Source of the DNA: Actinomycetes bacterium
Lineage (GTDB): Bacteria > Actinomycetota > Acidimicrobiia > Acidimicrobiales > JAKAOS01
Assembly (NCBI GenBank): GCA_021791675.1
Contig: JAJYWE010000004.1
Coordinates: 28,054 to 92,053, forward strand
Reading direction: 5' to 3'
Length of the DNA stretch: 64,000 nt
Shown here one piece after another: positions 28,545 through 49,491 of the stretch (position 1 is the first letter of the stretch; every line of letters begins with the position of its first letter). The translations under genes were made by a program, and so were the position numbers. The notes under the pieces are model-generated. The model had not been told where the DNA came from and ran no database searches. It was given only the letters and a program-made list of their open reading frames with translations.

Positions 28545-28574
28545 TGGGCTTCCCCCCGCAGGCCGGACACCGAT

Positions 28575-29872: not shown

Positions 29873-29935
29873 TTCCCTATCCTCCTCCAGCTGTGCTGGT
29901 TCGGGGTGTCCGGGCTATGGGGGGAGGTTCACGTC

Positions 29936-32261: not shown

Positions 32262-32272
32262 GCGGCCGGCGA

Positions 32273-32913: not shown

Positions 32914-33009
32914 GTCTCCTCCTTATTGTTGGGCCGGAGGGGCAGTCCCCCCGTGTGTATATGAGGGCGGGGGTGCGCACCTCCGACCACGTGACCATGT
33001 TAGCAGTAA

Positions 33010-33939
33010 TCAACTACTAACCCGTCCGTCCGGCACCCGGACCGCCCCGCGCCCCGCGGTGAGCTCGACGGAGACGCAGTGCTCGCCGCGGAACGTCTCG
33101 GTGACGGAAAGCGGTGCGCCCGCAGCGGCGAGTCGTAGCGCTGCGAGCTGCGGGCCGTGCGCGTCCAGCCAGGCGAGGGCGTCGAGTTGGAGTGCGAGCG
33201 GTTCGGGGGACTCCGCGACGCTCGGCGGCGCACCGCGGAGCGTGAGGGTGCCCATCTGCCAGGTGTCGAGGATTGTCTGCGCACCGGGCGGGACCGGCGC
33301 TGCGCCGGCCGGGGCCCGCGACGGCGACGGTGGCACGCTGGCGGTGTCAACGAGGCGGGCCACGATGAGCAGGCGGTCGGGGGTGAACCAGAGCGCGTTG
33401 GGCGGCCAGCAAGAGTCGAGCACCAGTTCGTGCGAGCCAACCTGCGGGATCGTCTGGCCGGGCTTCGCTACCAGGGAGCGGACGACGGCGAAGGTGGACC
33501 GCTCGCACCCGGCGGTGTAGGAGAGGGTCTGGCCCGGGCGGAGCGAGGCGTTCCGGGCGAAGTAGCCGACGTCGTGTGCCAGTAGCACGCTGGTGCCTGC
33601 CTGGCCGGGCCAGGGAGTGCCGGCGTCGTGACCCACCGCGACGGCGAGCGTCGCGCTGGACGTGCCCTGGACCACCGGCGCGGAGACGCCGCCCGGCAGG
33701 CCGGAGAGCACGCCCCCCGTGGCGGACGACGGCTCGCAGCGAACCGTCTCCACGGTCACGGGGGCGCGGCCGGGCCGCCTCTCGACCTGGCGGCTCTCGA
33801 CCTGGCGCGGGGCGCGTGACGCGGCGAGGGATGCGCCGACGACGGCCTGGTGGTGGGTCCAGAGGGCCGGGTAGGCGATCAGCACGCCGCTCGCAGCAAG
33901 GAGCGTGACGCCGGTGGCGAGTGCGACGGTGCGCAGCAT
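33010..33939 (-). CDS. sortase-family transpeptidase
   Basis: ATG at 33939 preceded by GAGGAGG; N-terminal TM; His region GTSVLLAHDVGYF; Cys region HELVLDSCWP; downstream Arg in RLLIVARLV. Confidence 0.7.
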   Translation of the reverse strand: MLRTVALATGVTLLAASGVLIAYPALWTHHQAVVGASLAASRAPRQVESRQVERRPGRAPVTVETVRCEPSSATGGVLSGLPGGVSAPVVQGTSSATLAVAVGHDAGTPWPGQAGTSVLLAHDVGYFARNASLRPGQTLSYTAGCERSTFAVVRSLVAKPGQTIPQVGSHELVLDSCWPPNALWFTPDRLLIVARLVDTASVPPSPSRAPAGAAPVPPGAQTILDTWQMGTLTLRGAPPSVAESPEPLALQLDALAWLDAHGPQLAALRLAAAGAPLSVTETFRGEHCVSVELTAGRGAVRVPDGRVSS

Positions 33940-33958
33940 GGGCGACCTCCTCGCCTGA

Positions 33959-36900
33959 TCAGGCAAGGTCCTCTGGGCGGGAAGCCACTCGCGCCCAGAG
34001 GACCTTGCCACCTCTCCGCGGGGGCACCACGCCCGCGGAGGGGGAGCTTGGGACGGATCTGCCCGCCCGCCGCCGCGGGGCGACGAGGGCGAGGCCGGCG
34101 AGGCCGAGACCTGCGGCGAGCAGGTAGTAGGTCACCCCGCCGGACCACGGCTCACCGGTGTGGGCCGGGGGGACCTTGGCCGGGGCCGGGGGGACCACCG
34201 GGGCCGGGGGCTTGGCTGGGGCCGGGGGGATCACCGGGGCCGGGGGCTTGGCCGGGGGGGAGGTGACGACGATGGACCAGGTGCCCTGGCCGGTGTAGGG
34301 GTCGCCGTAGTCCGGCGAGGTCGACTCGATCCCCTGCGGGGTCGCGATGAGGTGGCCGGAGGTGGCGGACGACCCTGCCACGAGACCAGGCGAGGTGACC
34401 TGCCCGGCCGAGTTGGTCACACCGTTCGCGGTGCTCGCCCCACCGGCGAACGTGACGCCGCTCGGGGCTGCGAACCGGACTTCCACGCCCGGTGCCGGCG
34501 AGCCGTCCGGCAGCGTGGCGGTGGCCGTCACGCCGGCGTGGCTGCCGCCCGTGGACATGTCCACGGTGCCGGAGCCGGCGAGGGTGACGGTGGGCCGCGC
34601 AGGTGCGCTTACGGCGGTGAGCACGTAACTACCGGCCCCCGACTCGGCCGCTGGCAGCCACGGCGACCACCCGGCATACCCCGCCGGCGTCGCGGTCGCG
34701 ACCAGGCCCGATAAGGCATAGTCGGCCACCAGCGGGGGGCTGGTCGCAACCCCCACCGAGTTGGTCACACCGTTCGCGGTGCTCGCCCCACCCACGAACG
34801 TGACGCCGGCCGGGGCCCGGAAGTCCACGGTGACACCGGACGCCGGGACGCCGGGGTCCGTCGCCACGGCAACCAGTCCACGGAACTGCTGGCCGACCCG
34901 GACAGTCTGGCTGCCGCTCCCCGTGAGCACGACGTGCGGCACCGTGCCGGCGACGAGCAGCTGTTGGGTGGCCGTGGTGGCCGGCTGGGCAGACAGCGCG
35001 AGCGACGAGCTCGACGTGCGCGCTGTGGCCGCCCAGGTGTGCCAGCCGGGCGCGAGCCCAGTGGCTTGGCAGGTCGCCACCGCGGGGACGGGACCGCCGC
35101 CCGTGGGGGGGTTGGACGTCGACACTGCCACCTGCACGTCCTGGCAGCCGTCGACGGGCAACCCGTCGACGCTGAAACCGACCGCCACCGGCAGGGCGGC
35201 GGGGCCGAACGCGTCGCCCATGCCCGGCCATGTCGGTCGGACCGACACGTCCGCGGTGAGCGTCGCGGTCGCCCCGGTCGGCGCCGTAATCGTGGTCCCC
35301 GCCGCGATCAGGTGGGGCAGGCTCTGCGCCGTGCGCGACACGACCGGATGCACCGCCGCGGGCGTGCCGGGACCAGACCAAAGGGCGTCGTAGGCGGTGA
35401 CACCGCCGACCGAGACGTCGTAGCCGAGCTCGGCGATGCTCGCGGCGTCGCTGACCGATACAGGACCGCGCTGGCACGCCGGACCCGACCACCACGATCC
35501 ATAGGGCACGCACACGATCTGGGGGCTGGCAAGTGGCGCGAGCAGCGCCCCCCAGCCGGTCGCTGACGACGACGGCCCCACCCCCCAGGCGGTCGGGGCG
35601 GGAGCGAGCCCGTCGACGATCACCTGGTAGCCGGGGGCGGCAGTAGACGGTGCGTCGATGGGCCTGAGGTGCGGGACGTACTGGTCCATCCCGCCGACCA
35701 TCACGCCCCAGGTCTCGAGGGCCTGGTGGCCCGGCAGGATCACGCTGGCCGCCCCTGCCAGCCACTCGCCGGCAGTAGGTGGGGCGATCTCTGGCGTGGT
35801 GCCAGAGATCGAGGAATCGCCGTGCCACGTGTTTGCCGTCGCGACAGCGACGGCGGACGGCACGGTGACGGCGAGCGGTGTGCCGGTGAAAAACGTCTCG
35901 CCCGCCACGGGCAGGGTCCCCGTGGCCGGCGTGGCGCCGGTGACGCGCCAGGTGGTCGGCCCGGCCGCCCTGACCACCGGCGGTACCCAGGTGGTCAGGC
36001 CGTTGACGGTGGTGGTGGGCGCCGCCGACCAAGAGACTGTCTCCGCGGCGTACGAGACCTCGAGCAGCCCACCCCACAGCGACATGGTCTGGGGCGGGAG
36101 GGTGGCGAGCTCAGTGAGCGCACCGGACGGGCTGGCGGTCACCGTCGCCGTCGGGTGCGCCGACGCCGAGAGCGTCTGGGCGTCGGAGTACCCTGCGCTG
36201 CCGAGCGCGTCTGCGACCGTCGGTGCTCCTGCGGCGGTCGGCCCGAGGATCGGCCCGAGGTCCGACGTCGATCCGGTCGGTGGGGTGGCGACGTAGACGG
36301 TGTGGGGAGCGTCGACCTGCTGTGCCATCTGGCGCTGGCCCGAGGCGGACCACGTTGCGGTCTCGCTGCCGTAGCCGCCGTAGCCGCTTGTAAAGCCGGC
36401 GGCGTCGGACCCCGGCCCCCAGAGCGCGGCGCCCCCCGATCCGGTGATCGGGCTGGCGCCGGATCCAACCTCCGGGAGCTGCGGGCGGATGCCGGTGCCG
36501 GCGGCGCCGTCGAACGCGGTCCCCGGCGGCAAGGCAGATGCCCAGATCGCGGGGACCTGTGTGTAAGAGGTCCCCGCGACCAGCTCAGCGGGGACCTCGG
36601 TCCCATCTCCCCCGCCCGGTATGACGCCGGCTGCTGCTGGCTGGAGGAAGACCGACGACGCCTGTGCGGGATCCAAGGACATCGTGGCCGTCGCTGCCGT
36701 CGGGTAGCCGGTCGGGGCCGAGCTCGGCCGGAGGATGGCGATCTGCCCCGGCGGACCGCTGCCACCGCCGTTGAGCGGCACGATCCGGGCATAGGTGTCA
36801 CTGCCGATCGCTAGGCCCGAGACGGTGTAGGTGGTAGCGGTGCCCGGCAGCGTCGTCACGACCGACCACGGCCCGGTCGGGACCGGAGAGGTCTCGACCC

Positions 36901-38227
36901 GCACGGTGGTCGCAGACGCGTCGGCAGACCAGGTGAGTGTGCTGGTCCCGCGACCGCCGGTGGACTGGCGGACCGCCAGCCCCGCGACGGCGGGCGGCGG
37001 ACTGGCGGTCGGTGTGGCGGTCGCACTGCTCGACGGTCCGGCCCCGACCGCGTCGACCGCGGTGACGGTCACGCCGACGGCCCGGCCGGGCGACAGGGCG
37101 GTGATCGTGTGTCGCAGCCCGGTGATCGTGGCAGTGCCGGTGGCACTGCCCTGCGTCCAGGTGATCCGGTAGCCAGTCGGCGCGGGCCCGCCTCCTGGTG
37201 TCCACGCCAGCGCGACCGACGTCGTGCCGGCGGCCACGGTGAGCCCCGCGACTGCGGCGGGCGGCGCAGTCGCCGCCGCGAGCTGCCAGACGGTCGTGCT
37301 GCTGCCGTACGACACGGACAGGATCTGGCCCGTGGCGGGGTCGGCGACGAGGGCCGTGGCGCTCCCGCTCGGCACCAAAGGCGCTGTGCCCGGGAGTGGG
37401 GTGAGCGCGCCGGTCCGCGTATCGACGGTGCCGAGGCCCGTGGTGGAGCTCGTCGCAGTCTCGGTGGTATAGCTCGCGACGAGCCCGACGCCCGGCACGG
37501 TCATCGCTCCGGTGAGGAGGGTGCCGGCAGGCGCGATGACCGGGAGTGAGGTCCATGCCGATCCGGTCCACGTGTCGATCTCGGTGGGATCGGACAGGGG
37601 GATCACCCCGAGCTGCCCGGTCGGGAGGGCGATGTACCCGTCCTGCGGCCAGCTCGGTTGCCCGCCGACCGTCGGGAGTGGGATGTGCAGCGTTGACCAG
37701 GTCGCGGGCGCCGTCGGGGACTGGCCAACGAGCGCGGAGCTTGAGGCCAGGGTCGCGGCCGAGTTGGGCGCGACGACCTGGCCGAGGGCCGGGACCCAGA
37801 CGGCCTGATTGGGGCTGTAGCCGGTATGCGGGACGTCTTGGACGCCGGGCAACGTGACCCAGGTGTTTTGGGGACCGAGCACCGCCTCCTCGGTCGCGCT
37901 CCCCCCGAGCACAGAACCGATCGCCAGGAGCCCTACGCCGGGCTCGTACGCGAGCTGGATCGGGCTCGCCAGCTCCGGGCCGGCGCTGGCCGGGATCGCC
38001 ATCGCCCACCTGGCGCCGGACCACTCGTACGTGGCGTAGCCAGCGAGCACCACGACAGTCCCGATGGCCGGGTCGTAGACCGCAGAGACGTTGGATCCGC
38101 TCGACCACGGGTTAGGCGTCGTCGTGACGACGCCGGGCGAGGCCGCTCGGGTGGCCGCTTGTGCTGGCGGGATGGCGACGGCGATGGCCAGCCCGGCAGC
38201 GGCGATGGCGGTGAGCAGTCGTCTCAT
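33959..38227 (-). CDS. 1422-aa surface protein with sortase-type C-terminal signal
   Basis: Signal peptide MRRLLTAIAAAGLAIAVAIPPAQA; FN3-like units (LAWTPGGGPAPTGYRITW); two Ig-like repeats (GVTF.GGASTANGVTNS.G); Pro-rich stalk; PAHTG + TM + RRR. Confidence 0.8.
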   Translation of the reverse strand: MRRLLTAIAAAGLAIAVAIPPAQAATRAASPGVVTTTPNPWSSGSNVSAVYDPAIGTVVVLAGYATYEWSGARWAMAIPASAGPELASPIQLAYEPGVGLLAIGSVLGGSATEEAVLGPQNTWVTLPGVQDVPHTGYSPNQAVWVPALGQVVAPNSAATLASSSALVGQSPTAPATWSTLHIPLPTVGGQPSWPQDGYIALPTGQLGVIPLSDPTEIDTWTGSAWTSLPVIAPAGTLLTGAMTVPGVGLVASYTTETATSSTTGLGTVDTRTGALTPLPGTAPLVPSGSATALVADPATGQILSVSYGSSTTVWQLAAATAPPAAVAGLTVAAGTTSVALAWTPGGGPAPTGYRITWTQGSATGTATITGLRHTITALSPGRAVGVTVTAVDAVGAGPSSSATATPTASPPPAVAGLAVRQSTGGRGTSTLTWSADASATTVRVETSPVPTGPWSVVTTLPGTATTYTVSGLAIGSDTYARIVPLNGGGSGPPGQIAILRPSSAPTGYPTAATATMSLDPAQASSVFLQPAAAGVIPGGGDGTEVPAELVAGTSYTQVPAIWASALPPGTAFDGAAGTGIRPQLPEVGSGASPITGSGGAALWGPGSDAAGFTSGYGGYGSETATWSASGQRQMAQQVDAPHTVYVATPPTGSTSDLGPILGPTAAGAPTVADALGSAGYSDAQTLSASAHPTATVTASPSGALTELATLPPQTMSLWGGLLEVSYAAETVSWSAAPTTTVNGLTTWVPPVVRAAGPTTWRVTGATPATGTLPVAGETFFTGTPLAVTVPSAVAVATANTWHGDSSISGTTPEIAPPTAGEWLAGAASVILPGHQALETWGVMVGGMDQYVPHLRPIDAPSTAAPGYQVIVDGLAPAPTAWGVGPSSSATGWGALLAPLASPQIVCVPYGSWWSGPACQRGPVSVSDAASIAELGYDVSVGGVTAYDALWSGPGTPAAVHPVVSRTAQSLPHLIAAGTTITAPTGATATLTADVSVRPTWPGMGDAFGPAALPVAVGFSVDGLPVDGCQDVQVAVSTSNPPTGGGPVPAVATCQATGLAPGWHTWAATARTSSSSLALSAQPATTATQQLLVAGTVPHVVLTGSGSQTVRVGQQFRGLVAVATDPGVPASGVTVDFRAPAGVTFVGGASTANGVTNSVGVATSPPLVADYALSGLVATATPAGYAGWSPWLPAAESGAGSYVLTAVSAPARPTVTLAGSGTVDMSTGGSHAGVTATATLPDGSPAPGVEVRFAAPSGVTFAGGASTANGVTNSAGQVTSPGLVAGSSATSGHLIATPQGIESTSPDYGDPYTGQGTWSIVVTSPPAKPPAPVIPPAPAKPPAPVVPPAPAKVPPAHTGEPWSGGVTYYLLAAGLGLAGLALVAPRRRAGRSVPSSPSAGVVPPRRGGKVLWARVASRPEDLA
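34150..34262 (-). repeat. coding tandem repeat (Pro-rich stalk PPAPAKPPAPV)
   Basis: Reiterated ggggccgggggcttggc / ggggggaccacc units visible in the sequence. Encodes PPAKPPAPVIPPAPAKPPAPVVPPAPAKVPP. Confidence 0.7.
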
Positions 38228-38231
38228 GATC

Positions 38232-39977
38232 TCAGTCCTCCCACGTGTCGGGTGGTGGCGGTGGTGGCGTCGGTGGTGGCGTCAGGTCGGTGGTGGGGCA
38301 GGCTCCCCGCGGCACCCCGATCGCGTCGAGGCGGTCGGGGAGCGTCGATGGCGGCGCCCAGGCGACGCGGAGGCCGCAGACTTGGCCGCCCTCGGATGCG
38401 ACGACGCCGAGCCCTCGGCTGCGGCCATCATCCAGGAGTGCCAGCTCGGCCTGGGCCTGGCTCGGCTGGTCGCCGTCAAAGACCATCTCGAGTGCGATGC
38501 GAGACGGCAGCTGTCCCGGCGGACAGAGCTGCACCCTGGACGTGAGGTTGGAGCGCAGCTCACCATCGAGATATCGCGCATCAGGCCGCTGGGCGGCCAG
38601 GACCAGGTGGATCCCGACATAACGCGCCTCGCGGGCGAGCTTGCCGACGACGAGAGCGATGCCCGCCCGCTGGGCGTTGGCCGCCTCGAGCTCCTCGCGG
38701 CGCGGGTCGTCACGGGCGAGGGCCGGTGGGACGCGGGCCTCGATCACCGTCGAGACGTACTCGTCGATGATCACGAGCGTCGGAGCGACCCGCTCGCGCC
38801 GGCGCACATCCGCCGGCAGGTCTGACCACTTGCCGGCCTCGTAGGCCCTCAGCACACTCTTGCGTCGCTGGGCCTCGGCGTATATGTCGTCGAGGAGGGC
38901 GGCTGCCGGAGCTATGTCATCGGCCCACCCCGCCGCCGCGTAAGGGCGGAGCCGGATAAAATCGACCCCCCCCTTGATCCCATCCACGATCGCAAGACGG
39001 TGGCCACGCGCGAGTGCCTGGGCGGCGAGGGCGAGCAGCGCCACCGTCTTACCCGAGCCGGTGGCGCCCACGGCGAGGACGTGCGGGCCCGCGGTGAGGT
39101 CGAGCGCGACGGGCTCGCCGCTGGCGTCTCGCCCGAGCGGTAGCGATGCCCAGTCGCTGCTCATCGTGTCCGGCAGCTCCGCGAGTAGATCGACGGTCTC
39201 CGGCAGCCGAGCGGGCGGTCGGTAGACGGCGAGCCACCTGCCCGCCAGTGCGTCGTCCAACACGTCCCACCGCTCGTGGCCGCCGGGGAGCAGCGACGCG
39301 ACGAGTGCCCGGATCAGCTCGTCGCGCTTGACGCTAGGTGGTGTCCACGCCGGGCAACCCACGTCGATCGCTGCTACCGGCGCGCCCGGGTCGGGCGCCC
39401 AGGTCACCGCGACCTCTACCTCCCAGGGCGCCAGTCGCATCGCCGCAGCGATCCGATCGCGCAGCGTGGCTGTCCAAGGCCATATGCGCGCTGCCGACGC
39501 GCTGCCCGCGGGCACGTCCGCCCGGACGAGTCGCAGCCCTTGCATCAGCAGATGGGCGTCGAGCTCCTGTAGGTCCCGGTCGGACGTCCGGGCGGCGAGT
39601 GTGAGTGTACGACCGTCCCAGTGCGGTGCGGGGGTGGCCGAGCAGACGGCCTCCCGCGTCGCGTCCAGCCAGGCCACGGGGTGCATCTGGGCGCCGGTGT
39701 GCGAGGCGAGACGGGCGACGAGGCGAGCGGTGTCCTCTGGATCGCCGCGGAATCCCGGGGGCACGCGCACGCGCAGCGATGCCGGCGGCTCGGGGGCGGG
39801 CGGCGTGGCGTGATCTCGCCACGCGTCGAGCGCCTCGAACGCCTGCTCTTGCCCGCCGGTGAGGTGCTCCAGCTCGTCGATTGCCGCCGTGGCAGTCTGG
39901 TCGTCGTGCGCGTTGAGCGCGGCGTGGAGGCGAGCGCAGGCCGCCCAGATCACGGTCTCGGGCCGGGTGCGCATCAC
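38232..39977 (-). CDS. FtsK/SpoIIIE-family DNA translocase (TraB-like)
   Basis: Walker A AVGATGSGKTVAL, Walker B TLVIIDEY, and the LVLAAQRPD motif. No N-terminal TM. Confidence 0.85.
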   Translation of the reverse strand: MMRTRPETVIWAACARLHAALNAHDDQTATAAIDELEHLTGGQEQAFEALDAWRDHATPPAPEPPASLRVRVPPGFRGDPEDTARLVARLASHTGAQMHPVAWLDATREAVCSATPAPHWDGRTLTLAARTSDRDLQELDAHLLMQGLRLVRADVPAGSASAARIWPWTATLRDRIAAAMRLAPWEVEVAVTWAPDPGAPVAAIDVGCPAWTPPSVKRDELIRALVASLLPGGHERWDVLDDALAGRWLAVYRPPARLPETVDLLAELPDTMSSDWASLPLGRDASGEPVALDLTAGPHVLAVGATGSGKTVALLALAAQALARGHRLAIVDGIKGGVDFIRLRPYAAAGWADDIAPAAALLDDIYAEAQRRKSVLRAYEAGKWSDLPADVRRRERVAPTLVIIDEYVSTVIEARVPPALARDDPRREELEAANAQRAGIALVVGKLAREARYVGIHLVLAAQRPDARYLDGELRSNLTSRVQLCPPGQLPSRIALEMVFDGDQPSQAQAELALLDDGRSRGLGVVASEGGQVCGLRVAWAPPSTLPDRLDAIGVPRGACPTTDLTPPPTPPPPPPDTWED

Positions 39978-40831
39978 AGCTCCTCCTCCGACAGGTCGAT
40001 TGTTTCCTCCTGTGCCGGCGAGCCGCCGCCGGCGGCCTCCTCGGCCGCCAGGCCGCCCAAGGACTCGGACGACTCTCGCCGGGCGGCCTCCGCGACGCTC
40101 ACGGGCTCGAGCCGGAGCGTGCCCCGCCCGGAGGGGACGAGCTGGTACTCGGGCATGTGGGCAGCGACACGCGCGGCGAGATCATCCCACTCGGCTGCGA
40201 CAGCAGTCCTCGGCAGCGGTGGACCGATCACGATCGAGTCGCCGTCGACCCCCCACGGCACGGCGCCGCCCTCCAGATCGGCCTGGCTGCACCCGAGGAC
40301 GACCGAGAGCGTCACGTCGAGCCCGGCCCGGCGCTGGCGCTGCGCTGCGAGGACGCGCACGCCAGAGATGCCCGCTCCCATGCCCGCTCCGACCACCGCG
40401 CCGTAGATCAGTCCTGCTGGGGTGAGCCCGACGACGACCCCCACGACGGCGAGCCCGACGACGAGGCCGGCGGCGGGCCAGCGCGGATCCAGCCGGGCCG
40501 CACGGATCCGATCCCGCAGCGGCATCGGTCCACCGGCGAGGAGGCGATCCGTGAGCTCGTGGCCGGAGGTGGCTCCGAGCAGGATCCCGAGCGGTACGGC
40601 GTCGATCCAGCTCCGGCTGATCGCGAGGTAGCCCGTGACCAGGGCTAGGCCCCCGGCCACGGGCGCGATGATGCCGGCGGCGCGCCGGAGGAGGCCGACG
40701 TGCACTCCGAGCGCCTCGCCGCCGGCGCCGGCGGGGACGGTCACGCCCACGATCCCGGCACGTCCAGCCCCGCGGCGCACACGACTGGCCGCCACGAGGA
40801 CCAGTGTCACGACCACAAGACCTGCCGTCAT
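39974..40831 (-). CDS. polytopic membrane protein coupled to the translocase
   Basis: ATGA overlaps at both ends; at least 5 hydrophobic segments; acidic C-terminal tail. Confidence 0.55.
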   Translation of the reverse strand: MTAGLVVVTLVLVAASRVRRGAGRAGIVGVTVPAGAGGEALGVHVGLLRRAAGIIAPVAGGLALVTGYLAISRSWIDAVPLGILLGATSGHELTDRLLAGGPMPLRDRIRAARLDPRWPAAGLVVGLAVVGVVVGLTPAGLIYGAVVGAGMGAGISGVRVLAAQRQRRAGLDVTLSVVLGCSQADLEGGAVPWGVDGDSIVIGPPLPRTAVAAEWDDLAARVAAHMPEYQLVPSGRGTLRLEPVSVAEAARRESSESLGGLAAEEAAGGGSPAQEETIDLSEEEL

Positions 40832-41634
40832 GCCGTCAGCTCCAGCTCCAGGCCGAAGCGCTCGACGAAGACCGTGCGTGCCTTGTCGAGTCGGCGGGAG
40901 CAAGTGGTCGCTGGCAAGCCGAGCCGGCGAGAGAGCTCGCCGACCCCCACCGGCTCGCCGTCGGGGTACCAGGAGATCCACTCGGCGGCAACGCGCCAGA
41001 CGTCGTCGGAAATGTCCCGACACTCGGAGAGGCACCGGGCGATCACCGCTGCGGCCTCGTGCGGGTACAGCTCAGGTTGGTCGTCGACGTAGGCGGCGTA
41101 CTCGGCGGCGACTCGCTTGCGATCCAGCCGAGCTGGATCGCACGGGGCGATCGTGTGGGGGGCGAGGTCGTCGGTGCTAGCGAGCGCCCCCTGGCGCGCT
41201 GCGTCGGTCCTGGAGGCACTACGAGCAGTGTTATGGGCAGCGACGAGCTCGTTGTCGGTTGGCTCGCGACCGAGGCGGGCGGTGAGTTGTGCACGGGTCC
41301 GGGACATGCCGCGCTGGCGGCGCATCGAACCCGTGTATCCGCCGAACCCGGTAGCCGCCCCGGACTCGAGCTCGTCGCGGAGCAGCGAGTGTGCGCGCAC
41401 GTACACCGCGGACGGCCAGGTCGGGCTGCCGGGGTGCCGGCCGTCCTCGAGAGCCCTGAGGGTGGCCAGGCGGACGAGCTGGCGGGCGTCGTCGAGGGAG
41501 ACGCGCTGGCGGGCTCGGCGGACGAGGATGGACGCGATCCGCTCGAGCACGACTGCTTGCGCGGTGAGCACGTCGGTGAGCGGGTCCGGGATGCGCGGTG
41601 CCATGCCTTTAACCATGCGGAGACTGGTGCTCAT
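40828..41634 (-). CDS. sigma-70-family-like protein
   Basis: Region-2-like VRLATLRALEDGR...YVRAHSLLRDEL, region-3-like TRAQLTARLGREPTDNELVAAH, region-4 HTH VGELSRRLGLPATTCSRRLDKART. Confidence 0.6.
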   Translation of the reverse strand: MSTSLRMVKGMAPRIPDPLTDVLTAQAVVLERIASILVRRARQRVSLDDARQLVRLATLRALEDGRHPGSPTWPSAVYVRAHSLLRDELESGAATGFGGYTGSMRRQRGMSRTRAQLTARLGREPTDNELVAAHNTARSASRTDAARQGALASTDDLAPHTIAPCDPARLDRKRVAAEYAAYVDDQPELYPHEAAAVIARCLSECRDISDDVWRVAAEWISWYPDGEPVGVGELSRRLGLPATTCSRRLDKARTVFVERFGLELELTA

Positions 41635-41999
41635 CGCTCGCTCTCCTGTCGTACGGAGGTCCCGATCTCGCTGCTCGGCCAGGTGCTATAGGCGCGCAGC
41701 GCGACTCTCGTCGCCGGGAGCATCCCAGCGCCGAGTGCGCAGCCAGGCAACGGCTCGACCGGCAGATCGTCGACCTCAGCGTCGGTGATCCCGGCCTCTA
41801 CCAGAGCGAGCCGGAGGCTGTCGGGCCTCCAGCCGGGCTCGACGAGCAGGATCGCCTCGACCTCCCACGGCGAGTAGGCGGTGAGCAGCACCTCCGGGCG
41901 CCCGCTCAGCTCCTGGTCGATCTCCTCGACCTCAGCCTCCCAGCTCCGGACCGCTATCACACGGATCCGTTTCGGAATCCGATCTTGGTGCCTGGCCAT
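41631..41999 (-). CDS. hypothetical protein (first gene of the sigma/translocase/adhesin operon)
   Basis: ATG at 41999 preceded by AGGAGA and by the 11-mer CCGCCCTCATA; ATGA overlap downstream. Confidence 0.5.
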   Translation of the reverse strand: MARHQDRIPKRIRVIAVRSWEAEVEEIDQELSGRPEVLLTAYSPWEVEAILLVEPGWRPDSLRLALVEAGITDAEVDDLPVEPLPGCALGAGMLPATRVALRAYSTWPSSEIGTSVRQESER

Positions 42000-42053
42000 C
42001 GTGTCTCCTATGAGGGCGGGCGATCTGCCCGCCAACCGGTTTTTTGGAGATTT

Positions 42054-42098
42054 CTTGCACAGACGGCCTCGCCCGATTGGCGAGGCCGTCTGTGCAAG
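42054..42098 (-). terminator. perfect 20-bp-stem hairpin starting 1 nt after the pilin-like gene stop
   Basis: CTTGCACAGACGGCCTCGCC-cgatt-GGCGAGGCCGTCTGTGCAAG. No U-tract on the minus-strand transcript. Confidence 0.6.
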
Positions 42099-42099
42099 A

Positions 42100-42702: not shown

Positions 42703-42797
42703 GTCGGTGGTCCTTTCCTGTTCGCCGTCCCCGACGGGGCCGGTCATATAGAGATCGGAACGGGCCAGTGCGACACACTGTCGCACCGCCTGAGCTG

Positions 42798-45700
42798 CTA
42801 GAACTCCCGGCGATCAAGCTGCTCGGGCTCGACCTCGATGTCATCGAGGTCGAACGCCGAGGCAGGAAACACCCAGCACCGCCGCGCATCGCGGACGCCC
42901 AGGGCTGCCGGGGCCCGACCCGTTGGCGTCGTGCCGGGCACCACGAGCGCCGCCAGGCTCCGCGCAACCTGCCGATCCGCAAGACCTCGCATACCAGCAG
43001 TTTCCCGAGCGGCTCTCACGCCCGTCGGGGTCAACAGGACGTGCCGCCCGTCCCGCGAGAGCCACCCGAGGTGCCGCCCGCACGCGTCCCAGCGGTACGT
43101 GGTGCCGCTCGGCCCGTCGGACTCGCTGAGCCGCCAGCCGAGGCGGAGCGGCCTGCTCTCCCGAGCAGACTGCTCCTCACCGGCGAGTGGGCAGCGCCCA
43201 TCGGCGCCGAGGAGGTGTCCTTGCTTGCCGGCGAGCATGTCGCGGACCGCAGCCAACACCCGGCGGCCCGGATCAGCGTCTTGGTGAGCCGCCGCCTGGG
43301 ATCTCGCAAGCGCAGCGCACAGCTCGCGCACTCGAGCGGACGGCGGCAGCACGTCCTCGCCGACCCCCATCTCTGCCAGGCACCGGCGCAAGGCGCCGAT
43401 GCCAGCGGAGATTGCGGCCACGGTCTCTCCCGAGCGACCGTGGCCAAGAGCTGCGTACGCAGGGCGCCACAGGCCGTCTCCGATGGCACTGATGGCGTCC
43501 AGGCCGCCACCCGCGTCGGCCTGGGCCGCCAGCCAGGCCAGGTAGTGCCCGATGAGCGACCGGGCCAGGCCCGGCACGGCCCAACGCGCTCTCCAAGCGT
43601 CGATTGGCGGGTTATCGCTCGCGAGCCGCAGATCGCCAGGGCCGATCTCGATCAAGACCGTGCGCTGTAGGACAGCGGCGTCCGACGGCGTGATCTCGCC
43701 CGTCCAGACCACCGTGGTGCGGGGCTCTCGCCCCGAGCGGAGCCCGCCCCGCCGAGTCCCCTTGGCCCCCGTCGTACCGCCGTAGGCGGCCTGTAGGAGC
43801 CCACTGAGGACCTCCGTGGTGGTCTCGTTGGCACGACCGTCGTGGTCGGTCAGTCGGTAGTCGTCCGCATAGACCACGCCGTCGCGGTGCCAGCCCGCGA
43901 GGACGAGCGCGCCGATTGTCGAGCTCGACTGGATCGATAGCGTGGCGACGCCCTTTTGGACCGCGACGGCGGCGGTCCAGGCCGCGGTCGCGGCCAGGAG
44001 GAGCGACTTGCCCGAGTCCGGCTCGCCGATGAGGCCGATCGAGGGACGGGTGGCGAGCCGGAGCGGCGCCGCAAAGACGGCCCCGAGGAGAGCGAGACCA
44101 ACCTCCGGCCGGTCCGGAGCGATCCCGAGCCAGGCGGGGATCGCCAGGACTGCCTCGTCGAGCGGGGCCAAGGCGGGGGGCATCCCGGTTGCCGCTGCGA
44201 CGCCCGCAAGGGCGTCGTCGTCCGAGCCCACGGGCGGAGCCACCGCGGTGTCGTGGTCGACACCGCGTGCGTTGATCGATCCTCCGGGCGCCGCCCAGGT
44301 GGCGTGGTCGTCCTGCCATAGCCAGCCATTGAGCGCAGCGCGGGTCGTTACCGCCTGCTCTGCGTGCCCGAGGACGCGGAGCATATTGCCGACCCGCTGA
44401 GCATCCTGAGGCATAACGGGCAGCGCAACGCCAGCATTGAGCGCATCGACGACCCTGGCAGGAGACACACTGTCGGCCGCAGACAGGCCGTCGCGCCAAT
44501 ACCTACGACCGTCCCGACGGATCAGCTCGACCGCGTACTCGTCGATGCCGATCTGCGGTCGGCCCTGCTCGTCCACGCCGGCGGTCGTGCGGTGCTCCGG
44601 CCGCCACGCGATCCAGTCGGCCACAAGGTCGTCGGTCGGGATCGACTTGCCGTCGAGCCCGCGGGACCACGACCGGTGCCACAGGCCGTGCCGAGCCGAG
44701 CCGACCACGGCGATGCAGTCGCCGGGGAGCGCGATAGCAGTGCCGTCCGGGGCGCCGAGTGCCTCACCGAGAGCCGCGTCGGCGACGGGACTCTCCGCCT
44801 CGGCCAGGACGATCGGCGGGAGCCGATCCGGGACAGCGAGGACTGCTCGCAGATCTGCCGGCGAGCAGTCGGCGTGGTCGGCGAGCAGGCGGACGAGTGT
44901 GTCCTCGTCCGGGGCGAAACGTGCGACCTGGGCGGCGAGCCGGTAGTCGCCGCCGCAATAGGCGGCGGCGACGAAGGCAAACGAGTCGAGTGAGCTGCTG
45001 GGCTCGAGACCTAGGCGCTCGCAGGCGCTCGCCGAAAAAACGGTGAGCCGCTCGATGCCATCAGGATCCTCGTACGTCGCGGCTTGTACGGCTGAGCCGT
45101 GCGGCTCGGCCGGCTCGGCCCAGTGGCTCTGGCCGTCGGCTCCACCCACGCGCTCCCAGCCCAGGACACGCTCGAGGAGTACCGATACGGGGACGGCGGC
45201 GGCAAGCCGGTCTCCGGGCCGGTCGTTGTCCGCGTGGGCGACTCGGCGCTCTGGGAGGCGGCGAGTGGCCTGTCGAGCCGGTCGGGGCTGGAGCGGCGGC
45301 AGCCAAGCATCGAGCTCGTCGAGCGAGATGCGGCCGCCGGGGGCAGCGACGATCTCGACGGGCAGCGAATCGCATCCGGGCTTTCGCCGCGTGGTGCCCG
45401 CGACACGCAGCACCCGCGCGGGATCGGCAAGCACCCCCGCATCCAGATGGCGGCCGGCCACCTGGAAGGCGGCCACCCAGGCGGCCTTCCAGCGCTGCGC
45501 GAGCTGGCGTGGATCGTCGCTCGCGAGTGGCTCCGCGAGCGGCAGCCAGATGTGGCATCCGCCGCCGGTCTCGACGCGCATCCGCGGCCGGTCGCCGAGC
45601 AGGGCGGCGATGAGCTCGTCGGCCTCCTCCCGTGTCGGGAGGTTTTGAGCTGCATGGCCGGGGGCGGCCACGTCGACATCGGCAACGAGCGCGGGGTAGC

Positions 45701-45980
45701 CGAGAGCGCTCTGCTTACGTCCACGCCCGGGAGCGTCGCGCTCGCTCCCGGGCGTGGGGCAGATGCCGACGTAGACGTTCTCACCGCCGAGGTGCGCCAC
45801 CTCGGCGGTGAAGCGCTCAACGTCCGCCAGGGGCACGCGGTGGCCGCGTGCCGAGAACCCGGTGGCCGCGGAGCACAGAGCGATAAGCGCGTCGGCTGGA
45901 TAGGCCGACGCGAGCGGTGCCCAGATGTGGGCGTGGTGGTCGGCAGCGGTGCGCAGGTCGAGTGCAGTGCGGGTGGCCAT
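42798..45980 (-). CDS. primase-polymerase fused to P-loop helicase-type domain (replication initiator)
   Basis: Trimmed to ATG at 45980. Prim-pol motifs VYVGICP, LVADVDV and GGGCHIWLPL; Walker A GLIGEPDSGKSLLL in the centre. Confidence 0.75.
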   Translation of the reverse strand: MATRTALDLRTAADHHAHIWAPLASAYPADALIALCSAATGFSARGHRVPLADVERFTAEVAHLGGENVYVGICPTPGSERDAPGRGRKQSALGYPALVADVDVAAPGHAAQNLPTREEADELIAALLGDRPRMRVETGGGCHIWLPLAEPLASDDPRQLAQRWKAAWVAAFQVAGRHLDAGVLADPARVLRVAGTTRRKPGCDSLPVEIVAAPGGRISLDELDAWLPPLQPRPARQATRRLPERRVAHADNDRPGDRLAAAVPVSVLLERVLGWERVGGADGQSHWAEPAEPHGSAVQAATYEDPDGIERLTVFSASACERLGLEPSSSLDSFAFVAAAYCGGDYRLAAQVARFAPDEDTLVRLLADHADCSPADLRAVLAVPDRLPPIVLAEAESPVADAALGEALGAPDGTAIALPGDCIAVVGSARHGLWHRSWSRGLDGKSIPTDDLVADWIAWRPEHRTTAGVDEQGRPQIGIDEYAVELIRRDGRRYWRDGLSAADSVSPARVVDALNAGVALPVMPQDAQRVGNMLRVLGHAEQAVTTRAALNGWLWQDDHATWAAPGGSINARGVDHDTAVAPPVGSDDDALAGVAAATGMPPALAPLDEAVLAIPAWLGIAPDRPEVGLALLGAVFAAPLRLATRPSIGLIGEPDSGKSLLLAATAAWTAAVAVQKGVATLSIQSSSTIGALVLAGWHRDGVVYADDYRLTDHDGRANETTTEVLSGLLQAAYGGTTGAKGTRRGGLRSGREPRTTVVWTGEITPSDAAVLQRTVLIEIGPGDLRLASDNPPIDAWRARWAVPGLARSLIGHYLAWLAAQADAGGGLDAISAIGDGLWRPAYAALGHGRSGETVAAISAGIGALRRCLAEMGVGEDVLPPSARVRELCAALARSQAAAHQDADPGRRVLAAVRDMLAGKQGHLLGADGRCPLAGEEQSARESRPLRLGWRLSESDGPSGTTYRWDACGRHLGWLSRDGRHVLLTPTGVRAARETAGMRGLADRQVARSLAALVVPGTTPTGRAPAALGVRDARRCWVFPASAFDLDDIEVEPEQLDRREF

Positions 45981-46053
45981 GTGCACTATGAGGGCGGCGA
46001 GACGGCGCCTCACCCACCACGCGGCGAAAAAACACCCTACCTGACCTGCTGCC

Positions 46054-46530
46054 CCACGCAAAACCGCAGGTCAGACTATACGTTTTTTGGGTTTGGGACG
46101 GTTTGGACGAGTTGGGGCAAGACCCGTCCCAAGGTTTTTTGCCCTCTGAGCTGGGCGTCTATAAGGATAAATGTGTGTTGGGACAAGATCTCCTGTAGTA
46201 GAGAGGTCGCGTATAGAGACTCTCTCTCGATCACGATCCGCGATCCGCGATCTCCCCTATATACCCCCCCCTCTACCCCCAGAATCCGTCCCAACGTCCA
46301 AAACCCCCAAAACGTATAGTCTGACCTGCGGTTTTTGCGTGGACGGCCCTTGTCCCAACTCGTCCAAAAAGCGTCCCAGGAGCTCCCGATGCAGCAGTTT
46401 TTTGGCGGATCAACCAGGCTGTCCCAAAACCCCAAAACGTATAGTCTGACCTGCGGTTTTGCGTGGGACGGCCCTTGTCCCAACTCGTCCCAAAACGCCC
46501 AGATCCGTCCCAAAAGCTCCTGGTGCCCAG
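46054..46530. repeat. ori/clt-like region: GTCCCAA iterons, 33-bp repeat in three copies, AT-rich GATC-rich core
   Basis: AAAACGTATAGTCTGACCTGCGGTTTT(T)GCGTGG at 46309-46342 and 46434-46466, inverted at 46054-46088. At least 11 GTCCCAA/TTGGGAC copies. AT-rich core at 46158-46280. Confidence 0.7.
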
Positions 46531-46537
46531 TTTTGAG

Positions 46538-46785
46538 CGACCCCCTGTTTTTTTGCTGAGACAGCTGAGACAGGCAAAAAGGGCACTTGACCTGGGGTGC
46601 AGTGCCCGAGGGGTGTCACACCCGGCACGGAGAGCCGGGGCACCTCAACCGCCCCGCGCGTTTTCCGACGCGACCCCCCTGTTTTTTGCTGAGACAGCTG
46701 AGACAGGCAAAAAGGGCACTTGACCTGGGGTGCAGTGCCCGAGGGGTGTCACACCCGGCACGGAGAGCCGGGGCACCTCAACCGC
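46538..46785 (+). repeat. two near-identical 115-bp direct repeats (46538-46652, 46671-46785)
   Basis: The copies differ only in C/T homopolymer lengths. Each contains GCTGAGACA x2 and the palindromes GGGCACT..AGTGCCC, GGGTGT-C-ACACCC and CCGGC..GCCGG. Confidence 0.85.
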
Positions 46786-47166
46786 TCAGGCCCGCCCGAA
46801 TAGCCGCACCGCGAGCGTCTGCCGGGCGACCCCGAGGAGCGACGCGATGGCGAGTAGCCGCCCGGAGCGGCCCGGCGCTCCGGGCGGACCGACAACCTCG
46901 CGCGCCCGCGCCTCCGCTGCCCGGCTGAGGCGATCTGCGGCCGCCAGCGCGACCGCCGCTTGGACGAGCTCGTCGTCCAAGGCAGCGGGGGTGTTGTGCT
47001 CACCGCCTCGGTGTCGGGCGCCCGCCGCCGCGGCGGTGAGCGCCTCGGGCGGCACGACGGACGCAGCACTGTGGGCGGCGTCCGTGAGAGCGCGTTCGGC
47101 AGCGTCAGCCGCCTGGGCGACGGCGGGCTCGATCACGGGGTGTGGCGGTCGTCGGGATGGTGGCAC
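46786..47166 (-). CDS. putative HTH regulator
   Basis: C-terminal RLLAIASLLGVARQTLAVRLFG is HTH-like. Divergent from the small-protein genes across an operator-rich gap. Confidence 0.4.
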   Translation of the reverse strand: MPPSRRPPHPVIEPAVAQAADAAERALTDAAHSAASVVPPEALTAAAAGARHRGGEHNTPAALDDELVQAAVALAAADRLSRAAEARAREVVGPPGAPGRSGRLLAIASLLGVARQTLAVRLFGRA

Positions 47167-47173
47167 GGTTCAA

Positions 47174-47258
47174 TAGTAGCAGATGCCTACTACCGGGTGC
47201 AGGGCGTTGGTAGTTCTCTGCTACTATGGCGTTGACACCGTAGTAGTAGAGTGCTACT
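47174..47258. promoter_or_regulatory. TAGTAG/CTACTA inverted-repeat operator array
   Basis: TAGTAGCAGATGCCTACTA (47174-47192), GGTAGTTCTCTGCTACTA (47209-47226), GTAGTAGTAGAGTGCTACT (47240-47258). Confidence 0.55.
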
Positions 47259-47279
47259 CGTACAGAAGGAGGCCACGAG

Positions 47280-47606
47280 ATGAAGACGTTGGTTGCAATC
47301 CTGCTCGCCAGCGCTGGCTCGGGATGGGCGGCGTTCCAGCTCCTGCACGGCCAACTCGAGGCAGCCGTCGCGCATGCGGCGCTCGTCTCCGACGCTCGCA
47401 ACGCAGCGCTGTCGCTCGCCGGCGCTCAGCTCTCGACCGCCGCGGCGGCGTCGGCGCTGGCGGCCAGGGCCATGCCGTCGGCGGCCGGTCGCGTGGACTT
47501 CAGCGCTGCGCCTGACACCAACGCGGTGGTCCCCTGGGCGATCACCGCGTGCGAGGTCGGCACCCGCGTGTGCGCCACCTGGTCGCCCGCAGCAGCCAAC
47601 AGTTGA
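47280..47606 (+). CDS. small secreted/membrane protein, paralogue 1
   Basis: AGAAGGAGG RBS, N-terminal hydrophobic segment, conserved C-terminal WAITACEVGTRVCATWSP. Confidence 0.6.
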   Translation: MKTLVAILLASAGSGWAAFQLLHGQLEAAVAHAALVSDARNAALSLAGAQLSTAAAASALAARAMPSAAGRVDFSAAPDTNAVVPWAITACEVGTRVCATWSPAAANS

Positions 47607-47669
47607 TCCGTCCGCTTTGGAGGGGCGGGCGAGGTGCCGCCCTCATAGGTAGTAGAAGGAGGCCACAAC

Positions 47670-48002
47670 ATGAAGTACCTGATCTGGATCCTCGGGATCA
47701 CGATGGCGCTGGTCTGGATCTCGCTCTGGCTCGTACGGGCGGCGCTCGGGTCGCAGACCTTGGCGACGCCCGCTCTCGTCACCGACGCGCAGCAGGTGAG
47801 CTACGCGGTCGCCGGCGCGCAGGCGCAGACCGCGACCGCCGCGACCGCCCTCGCCAACGCCGCGGAGCCGGGGCTGCGCGGGATCATCTCCTTCCGGGCA
47901 TCGCCCGATGCGGGCGGCGTGGCGGCGTGGGCGATCACCGCGTGCGAGGTCGCTCATCCCACCGTGTGCGCCACCTACTCGCCCACCGAGGCGATCGGCT
48001 GA
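47670..48002 (+). CDS. small secreted/membrane protein, paralogue 2
   Basis: Same RBS context (GTAGTAGAAGGAGGCCACAAC-ATG); C-terminal WAITACEVAHPTVCATYSP. 11-mer CCGCCCTCATA at 47637-47647. Confidence 0.6.
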   Translation: MKYLIWILGITMALVWISLWLVRAALGSQTLATPALVTDAQQVSYAVAGAQAQTATAATALANAAEPGLRGIISFRASPDAGGVAAWAITACEVAHPTVCATYSPTEAIG

Positions 48003-48525
48003 AGTCCCCACCGACCCTGGTACCTGCACATCACCCCCAACCCCCTGCACCCAGCTCCGCTGTGACGACGGGGCGTCTCGTTCCACTGCGCCCACTGCGA
48101 GACCGGTTCGGTGCCGGTTGCCGCCCTGTCTGGCACCGCTGATCGCCGGGGCTCGGCTGTGGTGTGCACGCTGTGACGGAGGTGCGTGATAAGCTCTCGC
48201 GCGGAGCTACCGCGTGAGCGCGAGAGCTTGTCCAGCACCCCTCGCCCGCGCTGCCGGCCCCGCACCGAGAGCATCACGGGATCCGAGCGCTGCCCGGTCC
48301 GAGGGGCGTCAGACCTCACCGATCCGTTGCCAACGCTGTGTCGCGCTGCGGGCTCGTGCCGCCTCGTGGCGACCCCGCTGCGGTCGCTGCGTGACAGGTC
48401 GGGCTGTTGGTCCCCTCGGGGATGTACGGGTTTGCGGGGTGGGCCTGCGCCTCGCTGACACCCGGCCGTCGCTCCGAGCAGACGGCTCAAAGCACTGGTT
48501 GCGGGCGGGGTGCGGGTTGGCCGCG

Positions 48526-49461
48526 CTACCGCGGCGCTGTGGCGAGCGCGGCGAGGCGCTCGCGGACGGAGGGCGGCGTCGCCGGATCGAGCACGACGGC
48601 GGCGCGCATCGCGATGTCAACGATCTCGCCCGGCTGGGCGAGCGGCCCTGCAAGATCACTCGCCGCGGCGAGCAGCGCCGACAGCGAGCGCCGGGTGTCC
48701 GCGAGTGCGAGCGCAGCGGCACCAGCGCGCCAACGCTGGCGGTCCTCAAGGCCGGCCGCCAGCACCGACCACGCAGCGCGCTGGTGTTGGCGGGCGTTGC
48801 CGCCGGGCGACCATGACCGCGGCCTCCGGCCGCGCAGCTCCGGTGGCCAGTCCCCGCGGTGATCTGCGTCCGCGGGAGCCGAGAGCCATGCGTCCGGCCA
48901 GGCCCCGGCGACCGCACCGAGCGTGATGGCGGCATCCACTGCGTGCCCGGCGACGCGCGCGCTCACGGCACCGCGTTGCGCGCCCGGCAGCCGCACCGGG
49001 CTCGGCCCGACCAAGCTCTCGACGGCGACTAGGGAGGGGCAGCGCTCGCTGTGGCGGTCGAGCAGCGCCGTGATCTCGGCGACGACCCGCCGAGCATAGA
49101 GAGGGGCACCTGCGTGCCAGCCGACTCGCTCGGCGGGTCGTCGATCGATTGTCACTCCGTCGGCGACGGCGAGCGACGGCACTCCGTCGCTCGACCAGGC
49201 GAGGCGAGCGAGGACGACGCCGGTGTGGCTCGCTCCGGGGTCGACGCCGACGGCGGCGGCGGCGCGGTCCGGACCGGCCTTGCGCCTCGCCTCGCTCTCG
49301 GCCGAGGCGAGCAGCGCGGTCGCTGCGTCGCGCATCCGCTCCGACGCGCCGGGCGTCGACAGGACCAGGCGCGCGTAGTCGGCCAGCGCCCCCGTCGGGG
49401 GCGCTGGGAGGCCGGCGGCCCCGGCCTCCCCCTCGAAGACACTGCGCGCAAACCCGGTCAC
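48526..49461 (-). CDS. RuvC-like (RNase H fold) protein, putative
   Basis: GTG at 49461 with the 11-mer 4 nt upstream. VGVDPGASHTGVVLARL and LVAVESLVG resemble RuvC Asp/Glu motifs. Confidence 0.45.
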   Translation of the reverse strand: MTGFARSVFEGEAGAAGLPAPPTGALADYARLVLSTPGASERMRDAATALLASAESEARRKAGPDRAAAAVGVDPGASHTGVVLARLAWSSDGVPSLAVADGVTIDRRPAERVGWHAGAPLYARRVVAEITALLDRHSERCPSLVAVESLVGPSPVRLPGAQRGAVSARVAGHAVDAAITLGAVAGAWPDAWLSAPADADHRGDWPPELRGRRPRSWSPGGNARQHQRAAWSVLAAGLEDRQRWRAGAAALALADTRRSLSALLAAASDLAGPLAQPGEIVDIAMRAAVVLDPATPPSVRERLAALATAPR

Positions 49462-49491
49462 ACCGTCTATGAGGGCGGCGGCAGTCGCCCC

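Follow-up and report, generated by a model that had tools for sequence, protein, structure and literature searches.

Several mobile elements bring their own sigma factor and transcribe from promoters of non-canonical sequence, as is known for gp28 and gp33/34 of the Bacillus phage SPO1, for gp55 of phage T4, which works with the late promoters TATAAATA, and for SigN of the Bacillus subtilis plasmid pBS32. In Actinobacteria, the regulation of conjugative elements is known mainly via repressors, and the integrated elements pSAM2 and SLP1 are regulated by GntR-type KorSA, Pra and ImpA/ImpC. Here we analyze a stretch of 64 kb from contig JAJYWE010000004.1 of an Acidimicrobiales bacterium, referred to below as the window, in which an island of about 28 kb, containing an integrated element, carries five exact copies of the 11-mer CCGCCCTCATA and encodes a divergent sigma-70-family protein (40828-41634). 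We propose that the 11-mer is the core of a bipartite promoter and that this protein is its reader.

The comparison with SPO1, T4 and pBS32 is close in its general logic, since here too a mobile element would bring a sigma-70-family subunit, near-invariant promoters unlike those of the host would head the element's own genes, and the sigma gene would lie inside its own regulon. The window's system differs from these in that its protein family is not recognized as sigma by Pfam or NCBIfam and has no member in the phage collection (a scan of viral contigs was likewise empty), in that the carrier is an actinobacterial integrated conjugative element or a megaplasmid, in that many target genes are leaderless in configuration, and in that the pairing of sigma and promoter is drawn from their co-occurrence. 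A search of the full-text literature, whose coverage is incomplete, returned nothing relevant on the literal motifs, on plasmid pACHL01 (see below) or on sigma factors of actinobacterial conjugative elements or megaplasmids.

The initial annotation of this DNA had listed five copies of the 11-mer, each reading CCGCCCTCATA towards the adjacent gene. An exact search of the 64 kb recovered the same five on the same strands and no other (Table 1), where 0.03 copies are expected from a dinucleotide-preserving model, and none of 100 shuffled sequences reached five. All five are intergenic, all are oriented towards the adjacent or next gene (5/5), and all fall inside the island, which is flanked by a 43-nt repeat of tRNA-Arg, with no exact copy in the roughly 36 kb of chromosome on its sides. 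Only exact copies stand out, because degenerate ones are not above chance: with up to 2 mismatches the window holds 26 copies against 20 expected. The sole copy with 1 mismatch (25758) lies inside the open reading frame (ORF) 25457-26044 and is best read as a chance occurrence.

Re-measured from the last A of the 11-mer, the gaps to the start codon are 6, 6, 9, 22 and 46 nt, and the same start codons are used in independent public gene calls on identical contigs. Three of the distances given in the initial annotation (6 nt to ATG 45980, 22 nt to ATG 47670 and 46 nt to GTG 32913) are unchanged by this, while GTG 49461 stands at 6 rather than 4 nt and ATG 41999 at 9 rather than 8 nt. The description of all five sites as heads of transcription units fits site 3 best, as it alone faces a long intergenic region. 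The other four lie in short gaps behind a co-directional gene, site 4 lying 30 nt past the stop codon of the paralogous ORF108 and site 5 being placed 13 nt after that of the integrase C-terminal fragment, and they are better called putative heads.

The 11-mer proved to be the 3' half of a two-part signal. A second block, TGGTYGR, stands 12 nt upstream of it (13 nt at site 5), and this 7-mer block reaches 9.45 bits compared with 7.24 +/- 0.54 (maximum 9.01) in controls consisting of 300 sets of five random window sequences searched identically, none of which attained the observed value. Two conserved blocks at about 17-nt hexamer spacing and oriented to the gene form the arrangement of a -35/-10 promoter: with the last A of the 11-mer placed at -7, this word would occupy -17 to -7 and the block about -36 to -30, as expected of an extended -10 with a -35 element. 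In an unbiased test of hexamers at fixed offsets from start codons, CTCATA came out on top in the window. Neither CTCATA nor TCATAG fits the TANNNT of housekeeping HrdB/SigA-type promoters, which may or may not be accompanied by a TTGACN -35, as the initial annotation had rightly remarked, and no promoter of sigma-70 consensus was found in 32000-50000.

A hairpin, terminator or palindrome was considered as another reading of the 11-mer and rejected, the DNA folding z-scores being near zero at four of the five sites with site 2 as a weak exception; a G+C-rich hairpin lies at about 42055-42080, between ORF228 and site 2. No Rfam family matched at the sites, and the known RNA families in the window are three tRNAs only. 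We regard it as highly probable that the 11-mer is a promoter core, because the two blocks lie at promoter spacing, the orientation is strict, the 6-nt distance to starts without a Shine-Dalgarno sequence recurs in independent replicons (see below), and the signal is used before unrelated genes. Of the alternatives originally offered, promoter or operator, the first is thus favored by the bipartite geometry, the orientation and the fixed start spacing, and the second is disfavored.

A transcription start about 7 nt past the motif predicts leaderless mRNAs at the genes with a 6-nt gap and leadered ones at the genes with gaps of 22 and 46 nt. The context of the start codons agrees with this prediction: the two 6-nt genes, which encode a protein resembling primase-polymerases (prim-pol; ATG 45980) and ORF311 (GTG 49461), have no Shine-Dalgarno sequence, whereas AAGGAGG stands at normal distance before the start codons of the other two. 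The leaderless or near-leaderless mRNAs first expected are therefore retained as a prediction supported by start-codon context for the 6-nt sites only, and the 22- and 46-nt sites are, to judge by their AAGGAGG, leadered.

The same pairing of promoter and protein was met outside the window. With tblastn, members of the sigma-like family were found on five large actinobacterial plasmids, annotated as 'HTH domain-containing protein' or 'hypothetical', and four Micrococcaceae megaplasmids, giant plasmids of soil actinobacteria, pair a family member with the near-identical motif CCGCACACATA. Several genes near the sigma gene of the Pseudarthrobacter plasmid pACHL01 have CCGCACACATA or CCGTACACATG exactly 6 nt before their annotated starts, and the motif is placed in the same way in pPA-B-2242, pYJN5-1 and the Arthrobacter caoxuetaonis plasmid, with 6-10 copies per 21-30 kb. 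Written out over positions 1-11, the plasmid word is C C G C A C A C A T A and the window word C C G C C C T C A T A; the plasmid consensus CCG[CT]ACACAT[AG] thus has 9 of its 11 letters in common with the window 11-mer. The plasmid sites also have an upstream block, GG(T/G)GAG(AGA), about 14 nt before the 11-mer, and GGTGAG recurs at site 3 of the window. When the 36 sites of the window and the four plasmid loci were pooled, with start codon spacing as a proxy for the distance to the transcription start, ATG or GTG stood exactly 6 nt downstream at 17 of them, compared with 1.0 expected (P = 2.6e-17).

The A. caoxuetaonis plasmid was the richest of these replicons, with 82 copies in the 230.6 kb sampled (0.8 expected), 39 of which have a start codon (ATG or GTG) at +6. 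Set against the annotation of its locus L025, 26 of 28 copies are on the plus strand, like most genes, and both copies on the minus strand precede minus-strand genes. The density of the motif varies, from 25-28 copies per 50 kb in some segments down to 4 per 50 kb in one where toxin-antitoxin and restriction genes abound, and the unbiased fixed-offset test put CACATA on top in locus L022. Judged from these counts and positions, the CACATA class would be the dominant promoter of the Micrococcaceae megaplasmids and of one class with the window motif. A third variant, GGGGAGG-N10-CCGCTCTCGTA-6 nt-GTG, was found on a short metagenomic contig whose sigma is 38% identical. Among relatives based on the prim-pol gene, L009/L010 (45% identity), L011 (32%) and L012 (30%), none shows the motif at the head of a gene; in L009 the prim-pol gene is preceded by a Shine-Dalgarno leader, and an exact copy of the 11-mer in L011 was discarded as it lies inside coding sequence.

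Some further features of these plasmids were recorded. The A. caoxuetaonis plasmid (NZ_CP099467.1, with loci L022, L025, L026, L029 and L030) measures 375 kb, is labeled 'non-mobilizable', encodes DnaE, NrdEFI, LigA, an RNA ligase, SSB, three sigma-family genes and a VirB4-like AAA_10 ATPase, and has long one-directional arrays of small genes with a CACATA promoter at each, a phage-like organization. On pACHL01 (L020) there is a second promoter-like class, GACACCCGTG-N8-9-AAC(C)GCATAG, at about 8340-8368, 12895-12920 and 16735-16761, that is, 8-10 nt before the starts of the ATPase/sigma operon, a 1050-aa gene and a PD-(D/E)XK nuclease gene; like the main class, it ends in CATAG. In three plasmids the PD-(D/E)XK nuclease gene also contains a copy of the main motif at a conserved position (L020 17864, L021 20437, L022 20545), where it could be an internal promoter or mark a mis-annotated gene start. 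In Curtobacterium pusillum pCPAA3 (L023), a large tRNA gene array with T-loop words repeated 7-14 times adjoins the sigma-like gene (about 17400-30500), a region in which no CACATA-type motif was detected.

The identification of the 40828-41634 product as sigma-like, made in the initial annotation from the sequence, was borne out by profile matches to sigma-28 structures, matches to Sigma70_r3 and the predicted fold. Searched as a single sequence, the 268-aa protein gave no match to the sigma models of Pfam or NCBIfam or to any solved structure. A word-indexed search gave two homologues only, an exhaustive HMMER search gave 214 relatives, mostly of 260-300 aa, and a scan of genome contigs with degenerate patterns, which was saturated, gave the single locus L008. 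A profile of 60 family members matches sigma-28 (FliA) structures over regions 2 to 3.0 (E = 1.3e-5), with a second weak stretch on region 4, and 12 of the 60 match Pfam Sigma70_r3. In hhalign comparisons with the family profile, an ordinary plasmid sigma reached E = 1.6e-6, while the family member of the A. caoxuetaonis plasmid aligned over 267 columns (E = 7.5e-43). The AlphaFold2 model built on the family alignment (predicted local distance difference test 87.6) consists of three helical domains with a low-confidence linker at about residues 160-190. The top 50 Foldseek matches to it in the PDB are all sigma factors (SigA, sigma-28, sigma-S, SigB; 240-300 columns aligned), at template modeling scores of only about 0.3, low because the domain arrangement differs from that of the holoenzyme. 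Similarity in sequence and the three-domain layout both place the protein in the sigma-70 family, confirming it, as far as profile and model can, as a very divergent three-domain member that is predicted to bind core RNA polymerase.

Nearly invariant residues of the family include RRxR at the start of the first sigma3 helix, and a QGALAS-DDL stretch is conserved in the region 3.2 linker. Ordinary sigmas read the extended -10 at the beginning of that sigma3 helix, so RRxR might serve the same role here. Promoters of the sigma-28 class (FliA/WhiG) have the form TAAA-N15-GCCGATAA. The window's system is like this class in that FliA is the best match among solved structures, in the three-domain layout, and in a long -10 whose 5' half is rich in G+C and whose 3' half contains ATA. 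It is unlike it in the elements themselves, CCGCCCTCATA and TGGTYGR rather than GCCGATAA and TAAA, in an identity to FliA of about 15-17%, and in the lack of flagellar or developmental targets. ORF122, which precedes the sigma gene, was considered as a conserved partner or anti-sigma and rejected, as BLAST found nothing homologous to it among the small genes that precede sigma in relatives.

These results can be assembled into a mechanism. The integrated conjugative element would have a private bipartite promoter, TGGTYGR - N12-13 - CCGCCCTCATA, whose extended -10-type core is the 11-mer at about -17 to -7, and RNA polymerase would start about 7 nt past the final A of the 11-mer. Leaderless mRNAs beginning at the start codon would then arise from the prim-pol gene and ORF311, and mRNAs with short or Shine-Dalgarno-bearing leaders from the other three genes. 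The reader would be host core RNA polymerase carrying the divergent sigma-70-family protein of the element. This is the most economical assignment for the window, since the protein is the only sigma-family product detected in the element and the megaplasmids share both this family and the promoter class. The run behind site 2 comprises ORF122, the sigma-like gene, ORF285, the FtsK-like gene, the fn3 protein and the sortase, so the sigma gene would stand behind a copy of its own promoter, giving positive feedback and an all-or-none switch for replication and transfer genes. Taken as a whole, an element promoter read by this sigma is the account that we think probable.

A comparable feedback has been described in Tn916, where Orf7 and Orf8 autoactivate Porf7 and transcription continues into the mobility genes (PMC5812530). 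Element-encoded regulators that activate their own promoter follow the same logic as a motif copy before the sigma operon. Unlike the window's element, Tn916 relies on one promoter with read-through and on unrelated proteins, and it belongs to a Firmicute host and conjugates by type IV secretion (PMC5812530).

Several points weigh against our account. Its start sites and binding are predicted from sequence, and the other copies of the element, found in public data, are so similar (99.3-100% identity) that they provide no phylogenetic footprint, the only variable stretch among them being the insertion sequence (IS) junction at 51570-51897. Read-through transcription could reach four of the five sites, each of which follows a co-directional gene. 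A sigma gene behind a motif copy needs a primer, be it read-through, basal host transcription or another regulator, and small ORFs without Pfam matches (ORF116, ORF122) may be undetected DNA-binding proteins. The search for the motif in homologous elements, which the initial annotation had recommended, was successful in part: the near-identical class is present on four megaplasmids with the sigma family, but no comparable repeated motif was seen at the family loci L001 (55% identity, 15 kb), L008, L023 and L031, whose fragments are short or have few promoters, and L027 and L032 yielded no convincing analogous motif either. Some of these points would suit a reading in which the kind of promoter is unchanged but an alternative sigma of the host recognizes it (in the plasmids, an ordinary plasmid sigma), the divergent protein doing something else. 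Another factor must start the circuit, the motif is missing at some loci with family members, and 9 of 11 motif positions are kept from window to plasmids although the sigma-like proteins have only about 25% identity, which would also fit a conserved host factor. In addition, the megaplasmids encode two further ordinary sigmas, one canonical with regions 1.2-4 and one group-3-like, which could equally read the CACATA promoters. We nevertheless consider a host sigma unlikely. The roughly 36 kb of flanking chromosome are free of the 11-mer, the hosts are very different (G+C of about 73% for the window and about 65% for the plasmid hosts) and have the mobile-element sigma family as their common factor, and the element has no other detected sigma-family gene. 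Moreover, the motif resembles no actinobacterial sigma consensus known to us, whether HrdB TANNNT, SigB-type GGGTAY, WhiG GCCGATAA or extracytoplasmic function AAC...CGT.

An operator, at which an element-encoded repressor or activator would bind the 11-mer over promoters of another type and so coordinate the five units, would account for 11 contiguous invariant bases, a tighter conservation than in most sigma -10 elements. It would also suit the 11-mer being the 3' arm of an imperfect inverted repeat at some sites (GGCGGGC-N5-GCCCGCC at site 2, fold z-score -2.35), and the binding protein could be among the small ORFs without domain matches. It is improbable, however, given that the motif is asymmetric, single at each site and always gene-oriented, with neither dyad nor tandem repeat, and that four of the five sites show no significant tendency to form a hairpin or palindrome. 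The 6-nt spacing without a Shine-Dalgarno sequence leaves no space for a downstream -10, no sigma-70-type promoter is nearby, the 82 megaplasmid sites before dozens of unrelated genes behave as general promoters, and a separate candidate operator word, TAGTAG, is present. The start-associated sequences of Cluster K mycobacteriophages, which contain a ribosome-binding site and are thought to act in translation, raise the question whether the 11-mer acts instead in RNA, as a processing site or an element of translation initiation within the 5' untranslated region. Like them, the window's motif is an asymmetric word of 11-13 nt directly upstream of many starts in an actinobacterial mobile element; it lies 6-9 nt from the start codon at three genes, the position of a ribosome-binding site, and at the four sites behind co-directional genes it is possibly within polycistronic RNA. 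We give this reading very little credence. Unlike the Cluster K sequences, the window's word is not complementary to the anti-Shine-Dalgarno sequence and resembles CCUCC itself, stands exactly 6 nt before starts as a leaderless -10 would, and has a partner block at -35 distance; a block conserved at a fixed upstream distance in both window and plasmids is a DNA-level, promoter-type feature. Sites 1 and 4, at 46 and 22 nt, each have an AAGGAGG of their own.

If the promoter and the sigma of the element do belong together, a dedicated sigma with dispersed near-identical promoters would represent a control logic different from the repressors mentioned above, an autocatalytic switch insulated from host promoters. 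A function would also be assigned to an unannotated protein family of at least 214 clusters, and the expression of hundreds of genes by megaplasmids of several hundred kb would find an explanation. Only tentatively do we extend this to a self-contained transcription module common to actinobacterial conjugative elements, from integrated ones of about 20 kb to megaplasmids of 370-570 kb. Such a module would consist of an unrecognized divergent sigma-70 family and its cognate promoter GG(T/G)GAG - N12-14 - CCGCnCnCATA with many leaderless genes, and might provide the main promoter of a whole megaplasmid replicon in a phage-like take-over. Being compact, strongly conserved and tied to leaderless translation, the promoter is a potential orthogonal expression system for high-G+C bacteria.

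Table 1. Promoter sites, genes and attachment repeats of the integrated element, in window coordinates
Feature	Coordinates	Strand	Remarks
Site 1, 11-mer CCGCCCTCATA	32960..32970	-	46 nt before GTG 32913 of ORF119; leader with AAGGAGG; proposed extended -10
Site 1, upstream block TGGTCGG	32983..32989	-	proposed -35-like element
Site 2, 11-mer	42009..42019	-	9 nt before ATG 41999 of ORF122
Site 2, upstream block CGGTTGG	42032..42038	-	preceded by A6 tract
Site 3, 11-mer	45987..45997	-	exactly 6 nt before ATG 45980 of prim-pol-like gene; no Shine-Dalgarno; leaderless configuration
Site 3, upstream block TGGGTGA	46010..46016	-	includes GGTGAG, the hexamer of megaplasmid promoters
Site 4, 11-mer	47637..47647	+	22 nt before ATG 47670 of ORF110; leader with TAGTAG and AAGGAGG
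Site 4, upstream block TGGAGGG	47618..47624	+	
Site 5, 11-mer	49468..49478	-	exactly 6 nt before GTG 49461 of ORF311; no Shine-Dalgarno; leaderless configuration
Site 5, upstream block TGGTTGA	49492..49498	-	13-nt spacer; overlaps stop codon of integrase fragment
Sigma-70-family protein, divergent, 268 aa, sigma2-sigma3-sigma4 layout	40828..41634	-	proposed promoter reader
ORF119	32554..32913	-	behind site 1
ORF122	41631..41999	-	first gene after site 2; overlaps start of sigma gene
Prim-pol-like replication protein, 1060 aa	42798..45980	-	behind site 3; PHROG 'DNA polymerase/primase' 7.5e-15
ORF110, small membrane or secreted protein	47670..48002	+	behind site 4; ORF108 paralogue, 44% identity
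ORF311	48526..49461	-	behind site 5; leaderless configuration
FtsK/SpoIIIE-domain DNA translocase, TraB-like	38232..39977	-	PF01580 E = 2.1e-15; site 2 run
Secreted fn3 protein, 1422 aa, PAHTG sorting signal	33959..38227	-	site 2 run
Sortase	33010..34011	-	site 2 run
Tyrosine integrase split by IS	49492..52809	-	N-terminal part 51865-52809; C-terminal fragment 49492-49758
IS transposase interrupting integrase	49917-51725	+	
xis-like HTH_17 gene	52809-53099		
attL, perfect 43-nt direct repeat of tRNA-Arg 3' part	25278..25320	+	
attR	53231..53273	+	inside tRNA-Arg(tct) 53229-53303(-)

In its gene content the right two-thirds of the island (about 32.5-53.3 kb) correspond to an actinomycete integrative and conjugative element (AICE-like). 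The island has a recombinase, att repeats at a tRNA gene, an FtsK/SpoIIIE translocase, TraB-like by its domain, and a replication gene; Pfam detected no VirB4-type AAA_10 ATPase among the element's proteins. Integration at a tRNA gene with an att repeat, the xis-int pair, the prim-pol-type replication gene and the FtsK/SpoIIIE translocase are shared with pSAM2 and SLP1. The element differs from these in having no GntR-type regulator or NUDIX gene by Pfam, in that control appears to be exerted by the sigma-like protein and dedicated promoters, and in carrying a sortase and a giant fn3 surface protein. We know of neither sigma-based control nor a sortase/fn3 pair in such actinomycete elements. 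The left third (25.3-32.5 kb) consists of IS debris and a second recombinase; at 25320-32500 it has a lower G+C of 62-69% and holds a DruA-like/transposase fusion, an IS3-type rve transposase and a tyrosine recombinase (30565-31554). Lacking an internal att copy, it represents either cargo or what is left of a second element. The interruption of the integrase by the IS is also seen in public metagenome copies, and with its integrase split, the element is probably no longer able to excise.

The fn3 protein has a signal peptide, a C-terminal PAHTG, a membrane helix and an RRR tail, a signal of the class E sortase type, and the sortase gene adjoins it. This pair is unusual cargo for a conjugative element of the Streptomyces type; a giant fn3 protein is also encoded by the A. 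caoxuetaonis megaplasmid (L026 5052-9614). ORF311 contains GVDPGASHTG, reminiscent of a RuvC-like nuclease motif, and has no database match. ORF108 and ORF110 (47280-48002) are tandem paralogues with near-identical ribosome-binding regions, one of them with a TTGACA-type upstream region and the other with the 11-mer promoter. Five TAGTAG/CTACTA words lie within 75 nt in the divergent ORF116/ORF108 intergenic region (47137-47279), together with TTGACA at 47233, and TAGTAG also occurs directly after the 11-mer of site 4 (47650) and upstream of site 1 (33014). TAGTAG is thus a candidate repressor operator, and the TTGACA region a candidate host-type 'starter' promoter for the circuit. Direct repeats adjoin the prim-pol promoter at 46047-46785, two of 75 nt and two of 116 nt plus an inverted copy of AGTCTGACCTGCGGTTTT. 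They are probably iterons of a replication origin, and the related GTCACTGACCTGCGG is found in L001 upstream of a DUF3854 gene.

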